From: an uncultured delta proteobacterium
GTDB lineage: Bacteria > Desulfobacterota > Binatia > UBA9968
Direction of reading: 5' to 3'
NCBI GenBank assembly: GCA_963737905.1
Contig: CAVTUQ010000005.1
Coordinates: forward strand, 64,001 to 128,000
DNA: 64,000 nucleotides
Part shown: positions 55,632-63,746 of the stretch, one piece after another
Layout: the number at the start of each line of letters is the position of its first letter
Numbering within the stretch: the first letter of the stretch is position 1
Position numbers and translations under genes: made by a program
Notes under the pieces: model-generated
Database searches by the model: none
The model's input: the letters and a program-made list of their open reading frames with translations, nothing else
What the model was told of the DNA's origin: nothing

Positions 55632-56072
55632 ATGAAAATTTTTAAGAATTCGTTGATTACCATGCAAGCTACGCTTTTGTTCGTGGCTTTCCTTTGGATT
55701 CATTTGTTCGGGGTCGCGGCGGCGTTGGCGTCGGACAAGGACCGGCCGGCGCACTTTCTTCCGGAAGAGAGGACGATAATTTACGAGTACTATCACCGAG
55801 GGTCGCCGTCGAAGGGTCTGCCGCCAGGATTGGCGAAGAAAGGCAAGCTGCCACCTGGGTTACAGAAACACTTGGACAAAAATGGGAAGCTCCCGCCAGG
55901 ACTACAGAAACGGCTAGAGCCTCTTCCACGGGATCTGGAAGTGCGGCTACCGCGCTTACCCGATTATTGGGAAAGAGTCATTCTTCAGGAACATGTCGTT
56001 CTGATCGACCGCCGCACCCAGCGAATATTAGACATCATTGAGAACGTGATTGGGCTAGCGACGGGAAGTTAG
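55632..56072 (+). CDS. exported protein with LPPGL(A/Q)K repeats (RcnB/CigR-like)
   Basis: Signal peptide; LPPGLAKK, LPPGLQKH, LPPGLQKR; C-terminal VLID..T..ILDII. Confidence 0.75.
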   Translation: MKIFKNSLITMQATLLFVAFLWIHLFGVAAALASDKDRPAHFLPEERTIIYEYYHRGSPSKGLPPGLAKKGKLPPGLQKHLDKNGKLPPGLQKRLEPLPRDLEVRLPRLPDYWERVILQEHVVLIDRRTQRILDIIENVIGLATGS

Positions 56073-56178: not shown

Positions 56179-56748
56179 TCATAGAGGCGCTCCGGCTTTT
56201 TTCAGCCCTTCACGGGCGCGCTCTGAAGTCATCGGCCCGATGACGACATCGCGGATCGTGCCCTGGGCGTCAATGAAAAATGTCGCAGGCGGGCCGAAGA
56301 TACGATAGGCCCGCTTGACCGTGCTATTCAGGTCCAAGGCGATGGGAAAGACGAGTCCGGCTTCTATGGCATATTCCGTCACGGCGGCGCGAGTGTCTTC
56401 GACGGCAATGCCCAGCACCGCGTAACCGTCCTTGCTCGCCTTGGATGCGAGCCCGTTTATCAGCGGCATTTCCTCCCGGCAGGGATCGCACCAGCTTGCG
56501 AAGAAGTTCATCATCAGGGGTCTGCCGCGAAGCGTATCGAGCCCAATGGGTTTACCATCGAGAGTTCTCAACTCAAAACCGATGGCGGTGCTGCCAACGG
56601 TAGGTGCAGATTTTTGGCCGACTTGGGGGATACCTTGCGTCCAACCGGCGCTCGGATGCAGCGCAAGATCCATCGGAAAACATAACAACGCAAACCATCC
56701 GGCGATGGAGATCAAACGCTTCGTCATTTCCCGCACCGATGGCATCAT
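56179..56748 (-). CDS. TlpA/ResA-family thiol-disulfide reductase
   Basis: NFFASWCDPCREEMP, PATFFID; ATGA coupling to the upstream gene. Confidence 0.93.
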   Translation of the reverse strand: MMPSVREMTKRLISIAGWFALLCFPMDLALHPSAGWTQGIPQVGQKSAPTVGSTAIGFELRTLDGKPIGLDTLRGRPLMMNFFASWCDPCREEMPLINGLASKASKDGYAVLGIAVEDTRAAVTEYAIEAGLVFPIALDLNSTVKRAYRIFGPPATFFIDAQGTIRDVVIGPMTSERAREGLKKAGAPL

Positions 56749-58091
56749 TGTTTCTCTACTCTCGCGTTTTTTAGGACTACCCATGAGTCTTCTCCATCGG
56801 TTTCTGTCCAGGCGACATGGAGTTGATGATTGGAAAGCGCCAACGCCGGCCGGTTGGCATTACCTTTCGCCTGGCTGATTTGCTGGACCGGACTCCACGT
56901 CTTGCCGTCCGGAGCGAGACTGCGGACGAAAATCTGCGACTTGCTCGCTCCATCCAAGTTATCCCATGCAAAATAGACCCGACCGTCTTCGGCTACCGCC
57001 ATCGTCGTGTGGAGTATCTCAGCGGCCGTGTTGGCATGAATCAGTTGCCGCGGCGCGAAGCTTCGACCGCCGTCTTTCGAGACGGTGTAGTAAAGGCCGG
57101 CCTCGCTGACCGAACGGCCCAGGGTAAACCAAGTCACGTGGAGATAGCCACGGGCGTCCCGACCGATGGTGGGACCGGAGTGTGGACAAGACGGGACCTG
57201 CCAGCCATCGTCGCTGATCTCAACCGGCGCGCCGAAGGTCGCGCCGCCATCGGTTGATTGCCGCAAAACGTGGTTGCGAATTTGATTTTTGTCAACCTGG
57301 CGATCCACCATATATACGGTCTTGCCGGCATCGGCGAAGGCGATGCCCAGCCGGCAGCATTCGCACAACCCTTCGCCTACCTTGTAGCTTGCCGTCAGGC
57401 GTTGGCCCGTGGCGCCGATGCGCATCAAATAAAGCGAGCGAGGAATCGGGTTGTCGACTCGGCGATCGATCCAAGCCACCAACAACGTATTATCCGGCGC
57501 AACTTCGACGATCGGAAAGCGCGCTGTGTCTTTGATTTCGTTGAGAGTCTCGGCTGGCGTGAAGCCGCCCTTTCCGTCTTCCATTGCGAAACGAATATTG
57601 GCGCGTGTCTTGTCGCCTTTTTCGTTGGGGATCGACCACACCACATAAGCTTTGTTGTCGGGTCCGAAAGCGACCCTGGGCCCGCCTTCCTCTCCCTCGA
57701 TCGCTTCCAAGAGGCCGTTGATTTGTCTGGGACGCGACCAAGTCTTGCCGTTATCGGCGGAAGAAGCCAGCAAAGCCATGCGCATCGGTGAGGCAGGCCT
57801 TTTCATGCGGGAGTCGTGCTGATGAGCGGGCGATAGCTTGGCTTGAGGCTGCGGCCGGTCGTCGTCTTCCGTCCAGACGGCGAACAATCGGCCGTCGGGC
57901 GCATACCGCAGGAAAGGCGTCGATGGATTCTGCTCGTTTTTCCCGAGCCGTTGCTCCGGTCCGAAGCTGCTTTCGATGGGTTGACGAGCATTGCCCGGCA
58001 CGACGAGATCCGAGCCGCAGCCAAAGAGCATCAGACTGAATATAAGCGGACCTGCAATAATGGCAAGAATTCGGGTGAATTGTGTGTGCAT
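56745..58091 (-). CDS. BNR/Asp-box (sialidase-like) beta-propeller lipoprotein with CECC and CPH motifs
   Basis: LFGC lipobox; Asp-boxes SADNGKTW, STDGGATF, SKDGGRSF, PDGKTW; CECC, CPHSGP. Confidence 0.85.
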   Translation of the reverse strand: MHTQFTRILAIIAGPLIFSLMLFGCGSDLVVPGNARQPIESSFGPEQRLGKNEQNPSTPFLRYAPDGRLFAVWTEDDDRPQPQAKLSPAHQHDSRMKRPASPMRMALLASSADNGKTWSRPRQINGLLEAIEGEEGGPRVAFGPDNKAYVVWSIPNEKGDKTRANIRFAMEDGKGGFTPAETLNEIKDTARFPIVEVAPDNTLLVAWIDRRVDNPIPRSLYLMRIGATGQRLTASYKVGEGLCECCRLGIAFADAGKTVYMVDRQVDKNQIRNHVLRQSTDGGATFGAPVEISDDGWQVPSCPHSGPTIGRDARGYLHVTWFTLGRSVSEAGLYYTVSKDGGRSFAPRQLIHANTAAEILHTTMAVAEDGRVYFAWDNLDGASKSQIFVRSLAPDGKTWSPVQQISQAKGNANRPALALSNHQLHVAWTETDGEDSWVVLKNARVEKQ

Positions 58092-58118
58092 GATTAGCCT
58101 CCTAGTTTCGGCGAATTG

Positions 58119-58535
58119 TCACTTGGTTGTGAAAGTGACTTTGTCCGTAGCGGCGAGCTCCGTCTTATGATCCTCTGTGGCGACCCTTAGTTCAAGCGTA
58201 TGTTGACCCGGTTTGATCCCATTTAAGGTCCCTTTCTCGGTTTGGAACATGCCCATCATCTCCCCGTCGACATAGGCATGCACATGCTCGCCCCGTTTAC
58301 CTTTAGTGAGCTTGAATTCAAGCGGTACCTTATCGCCCGTGATCATTTGGCCAGCTTTAGGTGAGATGATCTTTACGCTGGCACCTTCCGCCGGCTGGAG
58401 GGTGGATTTATCCGGCATTTTATCGGCGTGCTTCATCGGCATATCCATGCCTTTCATGTGGTCTTGAGCCACTGTTGCGATGGGAGTGGAAAAAATCCAT
58501 GCCGTCGCGACGATTGTAATAAGTGAGTTTTTCAT
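58119..58535 (-). CDS. exported Met/His-rich protein with an HxH..PGxH..DH Ig-like domain
   Basis: AGGAG RBS, signal peptide, QDHMKGMDMPMKH linker; domain duplicated in the CopD C-terminus. Confidence 0.8.
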   Translation of the reverse strand: MKNSLITIVATAWIFSTPIATVAQDHMKGMDMPMKHADKMPDKSTLQPAEGASVKIISPKAGQMITGDKVPLEFKLTKGKRGEHVHAYVDGEMMGMFQTEKGTLNGIKPGQHTLELRVATEDHKTELAATDKVTFTTK

Positions 58536-58552: not shown

Positions 58553-59806
58553 TTATTTGACTATGAATTCAACGCGGTCTCGTGCATCCAATTCGGTTTG
58601 ATGATCTTCGGTAACCACCCGAAGCTCCAAGATATGAGACCCCGGTCCAATACCATTCAAGGTTCCTTGCTTCCCTGTGAACATGCCCATTAACTCGCCG
58701 TCGATGTAGGCGTGAACGTGATAGCCACGTTTGCCCTTGGTTAATTTGAAACGTAACGGGACTCTGTCCCCCGTAAAAACTTGCTCCGCTTTGGGAGAAA
58801 TGATCTCAACACCGGCGCCTTCCGCGGGTTTTAGTAACGGGGTGCTAGGCGCGGCGCTGGATGATGCGTTCGCGAGGGCGTTCTGATGTACGGCATGAAC
58901 GCCGGGTGGAAGCACGGTGAGCAGCCCAGTTACGAAAAAAACCAGCAAGGCGAGGAAGCTTTCCGCGCCGATCCGCCTCAAAGCTCTGGGCGCCAGGGAA
59001 AGGTCATTGACATTTCCACGGGCGGCTCGAAGGAGCGCGGGACCTGTGGCAAGAAAGTTGAGCGCGCCGAATCCGAGCATCGTGATGAATAGGACCAGCT
59101 TGAGTAAGAGCACTCGACCGTAGTCAGTGCCGAACAGCGTCCGTAGATTGCCGACCTGAATCCAACTCTGGTAGAGACCGGTAAGAACAAGAACTGCGAC
59201 GCTGCCAAGGGCGAGCCGGGAAAAACGACGGATCATCTCTGCCGTCCAGGACAAAGGAAGAGTCATTTTTTTAATGCCACGATGGAGAATCCAGAAAAGC
59301 GCCAACAGGCCGCCGCCCCAAAGCCCTGTGGCAATCAGATGGGCGGCATCGGCCGCCACGACGACCATCGTATCCTCCTTCACAGCGACGGCATGACTAG
59401 TAAAGCTGCGGCCTGCTACGAGCGGGAGAGCAAGAAAGAAAACGCAGCGTATTGCTTTTACGCTCGCCGCCTTTCTCGCGAACCAGAATAGGATAACCAC
59501 CAAGGCGGCGCCGTAGACTTCCCGTAAGAGCCAGACTTTGCCGCTTTGAGTCATGAAGAGGTAGCGAGAAAGAACGTCCAGGGACGGTACAGCACCCCGT
59601 TGGAGCTTTGCGCCTTGTATCACTAGGGAGACCATGGCGATTATTAGGAAAGCGGCGGTCATGTACGCGCCTGAGAACGTCAGCGTTTGTCTCAGTTCTT
59701 TGGGTTCTCCGCCCGGCAGCAGAAAGCCCGCTGTGACGAGAACGCCGAGCAGAAACCCGAGGACGGCGTAGCCCATCCCTGAGACGATTGCTTCTAACGA
59801 GAGCAT
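58553..59806 (-). CDS. copD: CopD-family copper transport protein with a fused C-terminal His-motif domain
   Basis: TSHA, AAHLIATGLWGGGL, RRFS, T.YG..L..K; extra ~93-aa C-terminal domain. Confidence 0.88.
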   Translation of the reverse strand: MLSLEAIVSGMGYAVLGFLLGVLVTAGFLLPGGEPKELRQTLTFSGAYMTAAFLIIAMVSLVIQGAKLQRGAVPSLDVLSRYLFMTQSGKVWLLREVYGAALVVILFWFARKAASVKAIRCVFFLALPLVAGRSFTSHAVAVKEDTMVVVAADAAHLIATGLWGGGLLALFWILHRGIKKMTLPLSWTAEMIRRFSRLALGSVAVLVLTGLYQSWIQVGNLRTLFGTDYGRVLLLKLVLFITMLGFGALNFLATGPALLRAARGNVNDLSLAPRALRRIGAESFLALLVFFVTGLLTVLPPGVHAVHQNALANASSSAAPSTPLLKPAEGAGVEIISPKAEQVFTGDRVPLRFKLTKGKRGYHVHAYIDGELMGMFTGKQGTLNGIGPGSHILELRVVTEDHQTELDARDRVEFIVK

Positions 59807-59812
59807 GAGCCG

Positions 59813-60193
59813 TTACTTCCCCACCGTTCCCACCGTAAACTGCAGCAGGCCTTCAGTTACGTGAGTGTCCACCGAAAGAACCTGCCACTCGATGGTGTAA
59901 GTTCCGGGACTCACCGGTTTGAGGTCGATGGCTAGAGTGTCTTCAGCCAATTGACGCAGCTTTCCTTGGCTGACCACTTCACCGTTCGCTCCCTTGACTG
60001 CGATCTGGCTAAACGCGATCTCGACACCTTCAGTGAATTGAATGCGCACCTCCCGCGGCGGCTCTTTGACCTTGGCGCCGTTGTTTGGGATGGAGACCGC
60101 CGGATAAGCATGCGCCCATGCAAGCCCTTCCCTGTCTTGTAGTGAAAGGATTAAGAGCGCCGAGCTAAGGGCGATTAAAAACCTGGAATACAT
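59813..60193 (-). CDS. copC: CopC-family copper-binding protein
   Basis: Signal AWA|HAY (His1), S.P..GA, F.E..E, GTYTIEW..SVDTHVTEG. Confidence 0.92.
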   Translation of the reverse strand: MYSRFLIALSSALLILSLQDREGLAWAHAYPAVSIPNNGAKVKEPPREVRIQFTEGVEIAFSQIAVKGANGEVVSQGKLRQLAEDTLAIDLKPVSPGTYTIEWQVLSVDTHVTEGLLQFTVGTVGK

Positions 60194-60989
60194 AAGTTGA
60201 CTCGTAACTGGTTTTGTCCTTTTGGCCGTCGGGGCGCGGGCTCTCTTGGTCGATCTTTACCCGCGCTAGATAAAAATCCGCGGGGCCGATAGCAAAGGTG
60301 ACTCTTCCTTTCTCGTCCGTCGTTTGATCTTGCACCGATGCAGAACCGTCCATGCGACGAACCAGGGTGACCACCTGCCCCCTCGTGGGTTTTCCCTTTT
60401 GGCGCAGCTCCAAAGTCATGCTGCCGCCGGAGAAAACCGCGAGAGGGTTATTGACGGGGATGAATTCCACAGCGTCTTCGCCGGCGATAAGCCGGTCAAA
60501 ACCCTTTAGGTTCTTTGCCGCCGCAATGGTCGGTACTTTAAACGCTCCGAATGCCGTCTTGGCGATGCGCACCGTTACGAGCTTCGGCCCATCTCCCTGC
60601 TGCAGACTTCGCGCCTGACGAGCCACGGCCTGGTAAAGGCCTTCATCGTTTGGGACATACACCGCGAGATAAAAACCCTTGGGCCCTTTCGGGCCGACCT
60701 TTTCTTCGTCCTCCCCCAGATCGACGATGCGGTCCGTAAGCGTATTTTGTTTTCCCTTCGCGTCGACGACTGCCAGCGCAGTGTACTTGCCGTCCCACTT
60801 TCCTGCGATACGGTAGCTCTTGTGTTCATTTGAGTGATTGCCTTGGACGAGAGCGATGTTTGCTACCTGTCCTTTTTCAATGATCGTCGGAGTCACCTCG
60901 ACCCAGCCGTCGTGGCTTAAGGCTGAGAATGGATGGAGAAAAAGCAAGGCGACAAAGAGTGATAAACTTGCTTTACTCATTCGGATCAT
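60165..60989 (-). CDS. DUF4198 (CbiK/NikK-like) periplasmic metal-uptake accessory protein
   Basis: ALS|HDGW, G.H, E.IP..NP, GKP, TTDEKG.V.F. Confidence 0.75.
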   Translation of the reverse strand: MIRMSKASLSLFVALLFLHPFSALSHDGWVEVTPTIIEKGQVANIALVQGNHSNEHKSYRIAGKWDGKYTALAVVDAKGKQNTLTDRIVDLGEDEEKVGPKGPKGFYLAVYVPNDEGLYQAVARQARSLQQGDGPKLVTVRIAKTAFGAFKVPTIAAAKNLKGFDRLIAGEDAVEFIPVNNPLAVFSGGSMTLELRQKGKPTRGQVVTLVRRMDGSASVQDQTTDEKGRVTFAIGPADFYLARVKIDQESPRPDGQKDKTSYESTYVFQVFNRP

Positions 60990-61079: not shown

Positions 61080-61463
61080 TTATTTTTTCGCTATGGCGAA
61101 GGTAAAATCCCCCTCTGTTACATGCGTGTCTTTCGCTAATGCCTTCCAGTAAACGTGATAGGTACCGGACGCCAAGGGTTGAAGATCGACTTCAAGTACA
61201 CTGGCGTCCGGACCGTTTACGCGGCTGTTACCTTTATCGACTTGCTGTTTCATCGAATTGAAGACTGTGATGCTGCTGAAGGCCGGTTCCAGCTCCCCGT
61301 CAAACCAGATCGTCACTTTTGGCGGCGCAACAGGGATCGTCCAGCCAACTCTCGGGTCCGAACGCACCGGAAAAGCGTGCGCCTGGGCGAGGGTTTGAAA
61401 CGCGGTTATGCCGAGTATCAAAGCCAATGACAAGCTCAGAACCATTTTTTCTAGCGGTCTCAT
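61080..61463 (-). CDS. copC: CopC-family copper-binding protein, second copy
   Basis: AQA|HAF, LEPAFS, GTYHVYW..DTHVTEG; ATGA coupling to the upstream gene. Confidence 0.92.
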   Translation of the reverse strand: MRPLEKMVLSLSLALILGITAFQTLAQAHAFPVRSDPRVGWTIPVAPPKVTIWFDGELEPAFSSITVFNSMKQQVDKGNSRVNGPDASVLEVDLQPLASGTYHVYWKALAKDTHVTEGDFTFAIAKK

Positions 61464-62404
61464 CTCGGTATCGGCGTCGGGCCGATCACTCCCCATGGCG
61501 TCCACGTGAAAATATTGGGCCAGAGATCGTCGATGAAAAGATGGATTAAAGCATTTACGCCGGCGTTTTTGCCTGCAACGTTGTTCAACGGTAGCTTCGC
61601 TTCCAAGCCAAGTTCGACGTATCTTCCCACCCATATTAGACCCGGATTAGCGAAAGCAGCGGTCTGGCCGCGATCAGGTTTGGAGGCGTTCGTAGTGAAG
61701 TTAAATTCAACGACCGGAAACATGCGGTCAAACGGCGCACCGAGCCCAACATCCTTAACAAATGATTGCAAATAGGGAACGCTGTAGATCACGGCGACTC
61801 CATAATCGAGCGTGGTTGGATTGTGCTCCTTATCATCGCCGCTGCCGGTTGTCCGGTTAGCTGGATTATTGACGTTAAACTGGCCGTTGATCGAGAAAGG
61901 CTTCAGGTAGGCCAAGGAGTCAGGCAAGTCGCCGAAACCTTTCCCAAAAAAAAGGGCCGGAGAAATGGTAGTGACTCTTTCCGCCACCCTTTGGGGGCCG
62001 ACCCCACCAGGCTCTACCCCTAAGCCGACACTAAAGATACCCTCATGCTCAGGACTTGTCAGAGAAACATATTTGAAGCCGAATTCAGGGTTGCCTGCTC
62101 CCGAGGTACTAGATTCGCCTGCCTCTCTTGGATTGAAAAACAGATAGTCCCATCCGACGGTTACGGCGAAGTCGGGCGTCAGACGCTTCGAGAACTCAAA
62201 ACCGACACTGCTCTCTCTTCCTTCTTTGTTGTTGCTTCCCCATTCGACTTTCAGGAGATCCAATTCGTCGGACGCGAAAGGGTCATCTACGACCAGGGTT
62301 GTCGGAATAAACCGCTTTCCTATGACCCCGTGACCGTACGTCGATCTGACGGCGAAGAATAAACTCACCAGTAAAGACAAACTTATGACGACACATTTTT
62401 TCAT
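61460..62404 (-). CDS. putative small outer-membrane beta-barrel protein
   Basis: Signal peptide then HGVIGKRFIPTTLVVDDP; alternating amphipathic strands; GGGAGG RBS. Confidence 0.7.
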   Translation of the reverse strand: MKKCVVISLSLLVSLFFAVRSTYGHGVIGKRFIPTTLVVDDPFASDELDLLKVEWGSNNKEGRESSVGFEFSKRLTPDFAVTVGWDYLFFNPREAGESSTSGAGNPEFGFKYVSLTSPEHEGIFSVGLGVEPGGVGPQRVAERVTTISPALFFGKGFGDLPDSLAYLKPFSINGQFNVNNPANRTTGSGDDKEHNPTTLDYGVAVIYSVPYLQSFVKDVGLGAPFDRMFPVVEFNFTTNASKPDRGQTAAFANPGLIWVGRYVELGLEAKLPLNNVAGKNAGVNALIHLFIDDLWPNIFTWTPWGVIGPTPIPR

Positions 62405-62482
62405 CGAGTCCTCCCATAGAACGAGTCATCAGAGCTGGGTTGTTACCCGGCCCTAACCAATATTAGGAGAGTGATTCGATAA

Positions 62483-62866
62483 CTAGTAGAGAAGTGTGTC
62501 TTTAGGAGGCGCTCTCTGGAAAAAAAGGAAGGCAGTGAATAAATCGACCCACTGTCTTGTCTGTGGGCGAAATGATTCTAATTGCGCTTCAACGAAAGGC
62601 AGTTCAACCAGTGCGGCCTGGCCTAGATGGCAGCTCTGGGCGACGGATTGAATTGCGCAGTCGGTTTGAGCGGGCTTGGTTGGGTTCTGACCATGTTCGT
62701 GGCTTTCTGGATCAACTTGAGTTTCATCGTGTGCGTGGCCAAGCCCCTCAAAAAAATGATGCACCCGATGTGGCTGGGAAACACTCAGGAAGAGCAAAAA
62801 CAGCGACCCTATGGCAAGGGCAGTGCAACGACGCAACGCCGAAACTCTTTCAGGCGATTTCTTCAT
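62483..62866 (-). CDS. His-rich membrane-targeted leader peptide with C-terminal RAPP motif (DUF2946/CruR-like)
   Basis: Hydrophobic N-terminal segment, HRVHH..HAH..HEH, C-x8-CH, ends FFQRAPPKDTLLY 78 nt upstream of the next ATG. Confidence 0.75.
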   Translation of the reverse strand: MKKSPERVSALRRCTALAIGSLFLLFLSVSQPHRVHHFFEGLGHAHDETQVDPESHEHGQNPTKPAQTDCAIQSVAQSCHLGQAALVELPFVEAQLESFRPQTRQWVDLFTAFLFFQRAPPKDTLLY

Positions 62867-62903
62867 CGGTTGCTTAGGCTTTTATCCGAATTCGTTCGCC
62901 GGA

Positions 62904-63746
62904 TCAACCTGAAAAGCGCGGCGATCGTGTACGTTGTTGCCGGCGAAACCAGAACACGATCTCAAGAACAAAGAATAGAGCCGCGGCGGTCAATACGATG
63001 GTAGCGGCCGAAGATATGTCCAGATAGAAACTCAAATACATTCCGGTTGCACCGCATACGATCCCGATGAGAGGAGAAAGAATCAACAGCCGTTGAAATC
63101 GATTGGTTAGGTAACGGGCAATGACCGGAGGGATCACCATGGCGGCGGCGACCAAGGTGACGCCGAGAATTTGGGTCGAGGCCAATACCGTGACCGCAAG
63201 CAGGGTAATGAAAATCAGATCGATTTTGCCGGTGGAGACACCGTAGGCAGAAGCAACTTCCGGATCGAAGGTGGCGAACAGTAGTTGCCGGCGCATGATA
63301 ATAAGCGCACAGAAAACGATTAGAGATATGACGATGACGATCCAGAGATCCTTTTGAGTGATGCCGAGGATGTTGCCGAAGAGCGCGACCTCGATGTTGC
63401 GGGTAAAGCTCCGATAGGTCGAGACGATGGCTACGCCGAGGGCAAAACTGGAAGTCGTAACGACACCGATGGCGGCATCGGCCCCGACCCAGCGCCGGTG
63501 GCTGATCAGGTGGATGAGAAAACCGGCAAATAGCGCCCACAGCCCGGCGCCAACAAAGAAATTGACGTTCATCACGTAGCTCAGGACAGCGCCGCCGAAG
63601 ATGGCGTGGGAGAGGCCATGGCCTATGTAGCTCATCCGGCGCAGAACGACGTAGACGCCGATAAAGCCGCAAAGCGCGCCGACGACGACGGCGGCTAGAA
63701 AGCCGTTGCGAAAAAATTCGTATTCAAATGGGACTAACAAGGACAT
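62904..63746 (-). CDS. metal ABC transporter permease (ZnuB/MntB family)
   Basis: G..VVLRRMS..G.GLSHA, DAAIG, LFGNIL, FDPEVA, IPP..A. Confidence 0.95.
   Translation of the reverse strand: MSLLVPFEYEFFRNGFLAAVVVGALCGFIGVYVVLRRMSYIGHGLSHAIFGGAVLSYVMNVNFFVGAGLWALFAGFLIHLISHRRWVGADAAIGVVTTSSFALGVAIVSTYRSFTRNIEVALFGNILGITQKDLWIVIVISLIVFCALIIMRRQLLFATFDPEVASAYGVSTGKIDLIFITLLAVTVLASTQILGVTLVAAAMVIPPVIARYLTNRFQRLLILSPLIGIVCGATGMYLSFYLDISSAATIVLTAAALFFVLEIVFWFRRQQRTRSPRFSG

Follow-up and report, generated by a model that had tools for sequence, protein, structure and literature searches.

A candidate metal-sensing RAPP arrest leader with a single fixed cysteine and an invariant histidine cluster precedes a CopC-CopD module in a Binatia genome

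We analyzed a 64,000-nucleotide stretch of DNA (hereafter the window) from an uncultured bacterium of the Binatia lineage UBA9968 (assembly GCA_963737905.1, contig CAVTUQ010000005.1, positions 64,001 to 128,000 of the forward strand). A 127-amino-acid open reading frame (ORF) on its minus strand (62483..62866), which we call the leader, lies at a junction within a row of metal-acquisition genes, directly before a channel-CopC-DUF4198-CopC-CopD module. The leader is, in our judgment, probably a membrane-targeted regulatory peptide of the ribosome-arrest class that carries the motif Arg-Ala-Pro-Pro (RAPP), and a sister to the leaders CruR and CutF. Taken jointly with that reading, we consider it likely that the leader's family forms a sister branch of the DUF2946 leaders CruR/CutF that Pfam does not detect, in which the CxxC motif is reduced to a single cysteine accompanied by an invariant histidine cluster. 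The leader's architecture, the register between its cysteine and RAPP, and its genomic context give good support to a CruR-like, metal-sensing arrest leader; the sign of the metal effect, the identity of the metal, and the relative weight of translation and Rho in the output are matters that we infer. Positions below are those of the window, and features lie on the minus strand unless stated otherwise.

The leader and its family

The leader frame opens with an ATG at 62866 and closes with a TAG at 62485-62483. Its basic N-terminus (net charge +4 over 13 residues) is followed by a 17-residue hydrophobic export or anchor segment (residues 14-30, 62777..62827; mean Kyte-Doolittle value 2.11) and, directly after the helix, by the sequence PHRVHH (residues 32-37, 62756..62773). 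A linker rich in His, Asp and Glu then leads to DCAIQSVAQSCH (residues 69-80, 62627..62662), which holds C70 (62657-62659), 48 residues before R118. The C-terminal region reads FFQRAPP and then KDTLLY: the RAPP codons AGA GCG CCU CCU (residues 118-121, 62515-62504) mark the expected arrest point, and six tail codons and the stop (62483..62503) complete the frame. There are eight histidines (33, 36, 37, 44, 46, 56, 58 and 80) and three cysteines (14, 70 and 79). AlphaFold2 (AF2), given the family alignment, returned a confident helix at residues 7-29 (pLDDT ~92), a short helix at residues 71-78 after the cysteine, and nothing else (pTM 0.32); the N-terminal export signal or N-in anchor is a prediction. 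A first-pass annotation of this DNA had correctly described the ORF coordinates, its length, the export segment, the many histidines, DCAIQSVAQSCH and the 78-nt gap to the next gene, when read on the minus strand. It had also placed the RAPP codons correctly and called the motif terminal, where six codons in fact follow.

Homologue searches indicate that the leader ORF is a real conserved family, beyond what chance would give. Of 70 candidates from a word-seeded search, 59 were homologues at E ≤ 0.01, and most of these have a length of exactly 127 amino acids. An exhaustive phmmer search against 1.84 billion representatives of clusters at 50% identity returned 107 matches at E ≤ 0.001, with 18 at 1e-10 and 5 at 1e-30, and a profile built from 73 diverse members matched 411 of 2689 candidate sequences at E ≤ 0.01; the 120 best of these are all without a precomputed Pfam domain. 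Scanned across the window's phylum, the family profile found 3 of 401 genomes, including the window's own, two of the three being marginal; a scan around a Binatia metagenome-assembled genome (MAG) found the centre genome alone (1 of 301) and no further loci. Among the nearest ESM Atlas clusters, 28 of 30 are without a family and 2 carry DUF2946 on 12% of their members, which we treat as a lead only. Compared with ten relatives, the leader's 127 codons show 22-38 synonymous and 27-53 non-synonymous differences, so that constraint is moderate overall and concentrated in the motifs.

The 73-sequence alignment has a mean column identity of 28%, and its invariant columns are P32, H33, V35, H36, H37, C70, R118, A119, P120 and P121. 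RAPP is also present in 208 of 225 retrieved family proteins (the 17 without it were not looked at singly), in agreement with the first-pass expectation that the motif is kept in orthologues. Every one of the 208 RAPP-bearing members has a cysteine at a nearly constant distance before the RAPP arginine, 48 residues in 189 of them and 49 in the other 19. PH[RQ]VHH follows just after the helix in 207 of the 208 and, by these alignments, is the family's most conserved motif; the first-pass annotation had not singled it out. What that annotation had proposed instead was that the CxxC of known leaders is replaced by CxxQ / C-x8-CH. The absence of a second cysteine at this spacing holds throughout, with Gln at position C+3 in 144 members, Leu in 44, another residue in 20 and Cys in none. 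The replacement motif is not constant in the family: the window reads C70-A-I-Q73, and of its putative sensor residues only C70 is invariant, while Q73, C79 and H80 vary. The tail after RAPP is most commonly two residues (105 of 208) and in 78 members six, with RAPP lying 2-6 codons from the stop. Because these proteins were retrieved by similarity, part of their uniformity is built in; a register held to within one residue is still striking.

A histidine-rich, membrane-anchored product encoded between two transporter modules might also be a stable small membrane or periplasmic metal-binding protein, serving the ABC or CopCD transporters as chaperone or accessory, with a RAPP that regulates nothing. 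We regard this as extremely improbable. It sits poorly with an invariant RAPP, with a cysteine whose distance from it varies by no more than one residue across all 208 members, with the near absence of predicted structure, and with the pairing of the leader's last codons to the ribosome-binding site (RBS) of the next gene.

Relation to DUF2946 and other arrest leaders

The first-pass annotation had suggested a search with the DUF2946 hidden Markov model (HMM), and this came out negative: PF11162 matches the leader at 13.8 bits (E 0.099), below its 23.7-bit gathering cut-off. The weak match spans residues 34-121, up to the second Pro of RAPP, and profile positions 25-117 of 117. Among the 73 diverse members, 41 match DUF2946 at E ≤ 1 and only 1 at E ≤ 1e-4. 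A six-frame PF11162 scan of the window's own genome gave nothing above the cut-off, and matches occur in 4 of 401 genomes of its phylum. ORFs with the layouts CSIC-45 residues-RAPP and CPLC-46 residues-RAPP occur in two genomes of the same phylum. Aligned with hhalign, the family profile and the CSIC ORF match over 57 columns (89.7% probability, E 1.9e-6), with C70 on the first Cys of that ORF and a one-residue gap at the second; with the CPLC ORF (L051; related loci are identified by L numbers) only the RAPP end aligned, and not significantly. Oddly, the CPLC ORF passes Pfam and the CSIC ORF fails. In the leader 44 residues separate C+3 from R118, compared with 45 between CxxC and RAPP in the DUF2946 reference. 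The leader thus has the RAPP and the Cys-to-RAPP spacing of DUF2946 proteins, and has neither their CxxC nor a score above the HMM threshold. Overall, the family shares its architecture with DUF2946 leaders and, judging from these sequence comparisons, probably its ancestry as well.

CruR (Bp2923) of Bordetella pertussis, a DUF2946 protein, has its CxxC at residues 90-93 and its RAPP at residues 139-142, which puts the first Cys at R-49, and the CxxC-RAPP spacing is described as kept to 1-2 residues in more than 2000 DUF2946 proteins (PMC9426467). CruR is predicted to have a helix and little else (PMC9426467), and in vitro it arrests with two Pro codons in the P and A sites (EMBO J 2025, PMC12992588). 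Like CruR as described there, the leader is a small, putatively exported peptide with RAPP a few residues from its end, a Cys ~49 residues before the Arg and a largely unstructured prediction. It likewise has a C>G tract at its 3' end, an outer-membrane uptake gene downstream, and CopC, Sco, AhpC/TSA and MbnP neighbours, the same families that together with TonB receptors surround cruR homologues (PMC9426467). The kinship with CruR that the first-pass annotation had proposed is upheld by the shared register, export helix, poor predicted structure and copper-gene neighbourhood.

The leader differs from CruR in having no CxxC, a single Cys and the invariant PH-x-VHH, and in falling below the Pfam threshold. 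It may often not be the first gene: in our neighbourhood scan (15 loci, 145 ORFs) it follows a same-strand ABC-3 permease in 8 of the 15. Its spacer is 78 nt long and structured, compared with 162 nt as described for CruR, and the Shine-Dalgarno sequence (SD) downstream is predicted to pair with the leader's own codons. Where carriers of the family are named, they are Candidatus Binatia MAGs; the majority of homologues are from metagenome contigs, and not from Proteobacteria.

CutF of Rhodobacter capsulatus, as described in PMC9973294 and 10.1101/2025.02.05.636593, resembles the leader as a cotranslationally exported sensor with a short spacer, in which the next gene's SD is shielded by RNA pairing that a ribosome at the leader end can open; for the present family, opening by a stalled ribosome is clear in our model at 4 of 14 loci. 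Unlike the leader, with its single conserved Cys and RAPP, CutF has CxxxC and a PPP motif. Copper induces CutF stalling, and its target is a detoxifying oxidase, whereas the leader's is an uptake module. The accompanying survey sorts 5,334 CutF-like proteins into 29 clusters, whose sites consist of Cys, of His or of both (PMC9973294; 10.1101/2025.02.05.636593), and one of those clusters may be this leader family.

ApdA and ApdP also combine RAPP with an N-terminal membrane segment and are encoded upstream of the gene they regulate; unlike our reading of the leader, they are described as monitors of protein export (NAR 2021; Nat Commun 2024). We considered whether the leader, too, might monitor export and not metal, its arrest being released by the pulling force of Sec/YidC insertion as in ApdA, ApdP and SecM, with the His and Cys residues serving otherwise. 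An N-terminal helix followed by a near-C-terminal RAPP is indeed the layout described for Sec/YidC-monitoring substrates. Against this, none of the 15 loci has a sec or yidC gene downstream (0/15) and the downstream genes are all metal-related, and the invariant His cluster and the fixed-register Cys are left without explanation. Export monitoring is, in our view, very unlikely, and we return to the metal-sensing reading below.

In a survey of small proteins with RAPP or RGPP, the genes downstream include those for TonB receptors, YcnI, PCuAC and copper resistance, across many phyla (EMBO J 2025, PMC12992588). Three sequences in its supplement file 6 contain HRVHH, and in one of them a Cys stands 48 residues ahead of RAPP and a TonB receptor lies downstream. 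The principle has thus been published, with members of the leader family among the listed sequences; the text of the survey, in the parts available to us, does not describe the PH-x-VHH/single-Cys family. The supplements of the CutF and CruR papers contain no HRVHH, Binatia or CopD text. In the literature on DUF2946, RAPP arrest and CruR/copper leaders we found no PH-x-VHH/single-Cys family, no fixed register and no CopC-CopD placement, the cluster logos of the CutF survey lying outside this comparison.

Burial of the barrel gene's ribosome-binding site and the proposed mechanism

The SD of the barrel gene, GGGAGG (62410..62415), lies buried in the structured 78-nt spacer (62405..62482) that separates the leader from the barrel ATG at 62404. 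Keeping the RNA from SD to AUG unpaired costs 13.6 kcal/mol, tied for the highest among the 25 SD-bearing genes of the window (median 5.9). In the window's minimum-free-energy (MFE) structure, the CCUCCUA of the Pro-Pro-Lys codons, a first anti-SD, pairs with UGGGAGG. The spacer holds a second anti-SD, UCUCCUA (62464-62470), which begins 13 nt past the leader stop, and the sequence GAAUC (62473-62477). The complementarity of both anti-SD elements to the SD had been pointed out in the first pass and is confirmed. The RBS is buried by strands from three places: the Pro codons of RAPP, the tail codons and the spacer's first 20 nt. In all 14 loci folded, both the MFE structure and the ensemble have the SD paired. 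As in SecM-secA, the arrest site lies within the RNA strand that pairs with the next gene's SD; SecM senses export and uses RAGP, without metal ligands, and is in this respect unlike the leader.

Codon choice points to a role of the RAPP codons in this pairing. The first Pro codon is CCU in 26 of 31 leader copies and in 9 of 12 lineages (defined by hand), compared with 19% of the 1401 Pro codons at the same loci (binomial P of 5e-5); the second Pro codon is free to vary. A need for CCUCC to match GGAGG, with these codons acting as an anti-SD, would produce such a pattern. When all 384 synonymous versions of RAPP are ranked by SD pairing, the natural codons come at rank 6 to 50 in 13 of 14 loci and at rank 144 in L001. 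In distant relatives with a two-codon tail the pairing also takes in the Ala codon and its flank: the second leader copy of L013 (L013b) has 8 perfect base pairs, GCACCUCC with GGAGGUGC, and L037 has 10 base pairs with one G-U, GCCUCCGGUU with AAUCGGAGGC.

We derived a consensus fold from the 10 closest loci, leaving out L014, L017, L019, L001 and L024. In this RNAalifold consensus the tail codons GAC ACA CUU pair with codons 3-5 of the barrel gene, with one mismatch in the window (GACACACUU, 62492-62500, facing 62390-62398). UCAU at the leader stop pairs with AUGA at the barrel start, and GAAUC pairs with GAUUC, the stretch just before the ATG. Within the tail-codon helix, two synonymous changes in L027 both keep pairing, and L013 has one compensatory and one disruptive change. 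In the window's clade the SD has at least two further CU-rich partners, UCUCC(C)UA 13 nt past the stop and CUCUCAU after an internal hairpin, and, folded singly, most close relatives pair the SD with the spacer partner instead of the Pro codons. We also considered a kinetic trap of the second anti-SD in a local hairpin, and set this model aside since the relatives do not conserve the hairpin.

In the mechanism that we propose, the ribosome would arrest with Pro120 in the P site and Pro121 in the A site. In that position it would mask the CCUCCU anti-SD together with the first codons of the tail and some of a C-rich, G-poor tract. Arrest would favour expression of the copper-uptake genes by partially opening the RBS lock and perhaps by excluding Rho. 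Copper held by the nascent chain, at the His cluster outside the membrane and at the Cys, which would lie ~48 residues from the peptidyl-transferase centre and just outside the tunnel, would alter the duration of the arrest, and from this it would follow that the uptake module is shut at sufficient copper.

Several of our results weigh against this mechanism. The 181-nt fold of the whole region is not exceptional (z = -1.63, with 11 of 200 shuffles as good), and synonymous conservation in the leader tail is only slightly raised (0.75 vs 0.64). L027 has CCG CCG and so lacks the first anti-SD, and RNAalifold on the ten relatives picks the third CU-rich partner, which makes the partner of the SD ambiguous. 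The leader itself has no recognisable SD in any of 11 relatives (11/11). NikR and a ZnuABC-like transporter are encoded upstream, which keeps nickel and zinc as candidates for the sensed metal.

The remaining points of this kind come from three modelled states, for which we used crude footprints and equilibrium folds: the RNA without a ribosome, with a ribosome whose P site is on Pro120, and with one that has reached the stop codon. SD opening in these states costs 13.6 / 12.3 / 7.2 kcal/mol in the window, and in the window and six close relatives together the ranges are 10.8-13.8 for the full RNA, 10.2-13.8 when stalled and 6.6-8.5 at the stop. The stalled ribosome barely lowers the window's cost because the second anti-SD takes over, and thermodynamics thus does not show exposure of the SD by stalling alone. 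Once at the stop, the ribosome brings the cost down to that of an ordinary gene, and in the window's clade this stop-dependent opening fits release-dependent coupling better than stall-dependent opening. The first-pass proposal that stalling exposes the SD finds modelled support in 4 of 14 loci, where the cost drops already in the stalled state (for example 13.3 / 6.3 / 6.1 and 14.6 / 8.0 / 7.4 in two relatives with a two-codon tail), and none in the window's own clade.

Release-dependent coupling would make the stall the OFF state: the spacer anti-SD and the tail-codon helix would lock the RBS, only a ribosome that escapes RAPP and reaches the stop would unzip it, and a signal that ends the arrest would turn the copper genes on. 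Beyond the window, the cost falls in this order in 12 of 14 loci; moreover, the 5' strands of the conserved helices lie between RAPP and stop+10, and in L001 and L024 the best anti-SD is found just after the stop or in the tail codons. We nevertheless consider such coupling unlikely. CruR, CutF and SecM, as far as the CruR and CutF papers describe them, all have the downstream gene ON while stalled; the CCU bias at the first Pro codon would have no role; and with the two-residue tail of 105 of 208 members, stalled and terminating ribosomes cover nearly the same RNA. The model being crude, we weigh the fold results lightly against the fact that all arrest leaders characterised in those papers are ON while stalled. 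A switch in which the stall opens the SD is, on these models, plausible for the family and unsupported by folding for the window's clade.

A second possible output is transcriptional. The C-rich, G-poor tract is centred on RAPP (62461..62544) and has 24-25 C and 8 G per 78 nt; its C/G ratio of 3.0-3.1 exceeds the window-wide 99th percentile of 2.23 for 78-nt windows, and in 21 of 22 related loci it ranks within the top 2.1% for that locus or better. The same 78-nt C>G bubble analysis located the rut site of CruR (PMC9426467). In CruR-type Rho attenuation as the main output, a ribosome stalled in the tract would block Rho; once it is released, the bare tract would recruit Rho and transcription would terminate before or within the barrel gene, whose buried RBS would leave the downstream RNA untranslated and open to Rho. 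This is compatible with the mechanism that we favour and is a real possibility, if a doubtful one. When we resampled synonymous codons, the C>G excess of the coding part was given by the amino acids under window codon usage (P 0.30-0.40), so that it is no independent evidence for a rut site, and the strongly structured 78-nt spacer has 19 C and 19 G and is short beside the 162 nt described for CruR. The tract is compatible with a rut site and is not evidence for one.

A more elaborate form of our mechanism, which we think quite unlikely, would make the leader a two-point sensor with a dual output. The His cluster at the outer face of the membrane and the Cys at the tunnel exit or SecY vestibule would compare periplasmic with cytoplasmic-side copper, and the arrested ribosome would both hide the anti-SD of its own Pro codons and split the Rho loading tract, gating the copper-uptake module in the middle of a longer metal-acquisition transcript. 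The literature on CruR and CutF, as far as it was available to us, contains no description of such mid-transcript dual-output gating.

Initiation and termination signals around the leader are sparse. The missing SD, a conserved CGAUAA(A/G)AG ~20 nt upstream of the leader ATG (within 62867-62903 in the window and at the same place in 10 relatives), and the nearby stop of the ABC-3 gene together suggest weak or coupled initiation; that stop lies 17-38 nt upstream of the leader in most loci that have the gene and up to 111 nt upstream in L032. Within the leader, 18 nt before RAPP, an 8-bp hairpin is followed by a U-rich run in the FLFF codons (62533-62554). A simple scan gave 2 terminator-like sites against 1.0 expected, which is not significant, and the site at 62533-62554 is not kept in all relatives. 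We found no promoter-like site in 62300-63100, and an Rfam scan of 62200-63100 gave nothing beyond a chance-level match (E 0.98).

Gene neighbourhood and significance

The gene next to the leader (61460..62404) encodes a 314-residue protein that belongs to no Pfam family. Its AF2 model (pLDDT 74.3) has a signal helix and about 14 strands by DSSP, and Foldseek matches it to FapF (E 3.8e-8, TMq 0.57) and to a COG4313 channel (TMq 0.53), with classical porins lower. These matches justify the label of a β-barrel outer-membrane channel. The protein has 1917 homologues at E ≤ 0.001; a 68%-identical one is named Candidatus Binatia.

Downstream follow a first CopC (61080..61463; Pfam CopC 8.5e-18), a periplasmic DUF4198 protein (60165..60989; Pfam 1.7e-17), a second CopC (59813..60193; Pfam 7.3e-20) and CopD with a C-terminal Ig-like extension (58553..59806; Pfam CopD 1.3e-20, NCBIfam copper_CopD 5e-33). 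The listed ORF of the first CopC extends to 61634, and from the sequence its start is most likely Met58, whose ATG overlaps the barrel gene stop as ATGA. The mature part of both CopC proteins begins with His after an Ala-x-Ala site, which we take to mark the Cu(II) type. CopC/CopD homologues in E. coli have been reported, as far as that account goes, as a copper uptake route. A trio of genes for a 138-residue Ig-like protein, a BNR-repeat protein and an AhpC/TSA thiol protein (56179..58535) comes next and recurs in related loci.

The last ~90 residues of CopD (58553-59806) resemble the 138-residue protein that follows (58119-58535). Both read ...AEGA-V-IISPKA...KLTKGKRG-HVHAY-DGE-MGMF... and appear as a duplicated Ig-like domain with weak BiPBP_C/DUF4399 matches, and the small Ig-like gene recurs in L001, L039 and L042. 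Beside the end of the copper module, on the opposite (plus) strand, lies an ORF for a 146-residue exported protein with three GKLPPGL(A/Q)K repeats (55632-56072).

Upstream, an ABC-3 (ZnuB-like) permease gene (62904..63746; Pfam 1.3e-65) ends 37 nt short of the leader, and the gap contains no promoter-like site. Further upstream lie genes for an ABC ATPase, a split ZnuA-like protein, a TonB-ExbBD set, DUF4198, a TonB-dependent receptor and NikR. Beyond the window end (L049) the row reads NikR, TonB-dependent receptor, DUF4198, ExbB, ExbD, TonB and a methyltransferase with a His-rich N-terminus, and it continues with ChrB, chromate-transporter genes, DUF6815 and then ZnuA, ABC ATPase and ABC-3 up to the leader. 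NikR lies close to the leader in L001 and L002 as well, and it may set the transcription of the whole gene row. The ZnuA-like gene appears as two separate ORFs both in the window's genome (L049:2880-3464 and an ORF just upstream) and in L018 (2216-2907), which could be a frameshift, an assembly error or decay.

Copper-related genes lie downstream of the leader in the window and in the 15 loci of the neighbourhood scan. The next gene is the barrel gene in the window, L001, L013 and L015, and also in L024, which is outside the 15. DUF4198-CopC-CopD comes next in L002 and L032; a TonB-dependent receptor in the second copy of L013, in L037 and L042, and in L036 after a DsrE-like gene; and Ig-like-BNR-AhpC/TSA-Cox11 in L039. 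Sco1, Cox11 and MbnP are also neighbours in related loci. Two contigs carry two leader paralogues each, L013 (729-1148 and 2909-3292) and L018 (5001-5384 and 9897-10283). One paralogue of L013 precedes a TonB-dependent receptor and the other a barrel-CopC module, a placement which indicates that the leader is reused module by module.

In CruR and CutF, as described, a nascent exported peptide senses copper and sets expression via ribosome arrest (PMC9426467; PMC9973294). How metal binding lengthens or shortens the arrest is a question on which the natural variation of the leader family bears: the essential geometry would be the distance of one thiol from the arrest point, with the second Cys of CxxC exchangeable and a His cluster added by the helix. 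Surveys that rely on PF11162 miss the family, since Pfam does not see it. With the leader, the range of arrest leaders would come to include little-studied bacteria that are known mostly from metagenome contigs, as well as CopC-CopD uptake modules headed by a family of outer-membrane channels that is itself uncharacterised.

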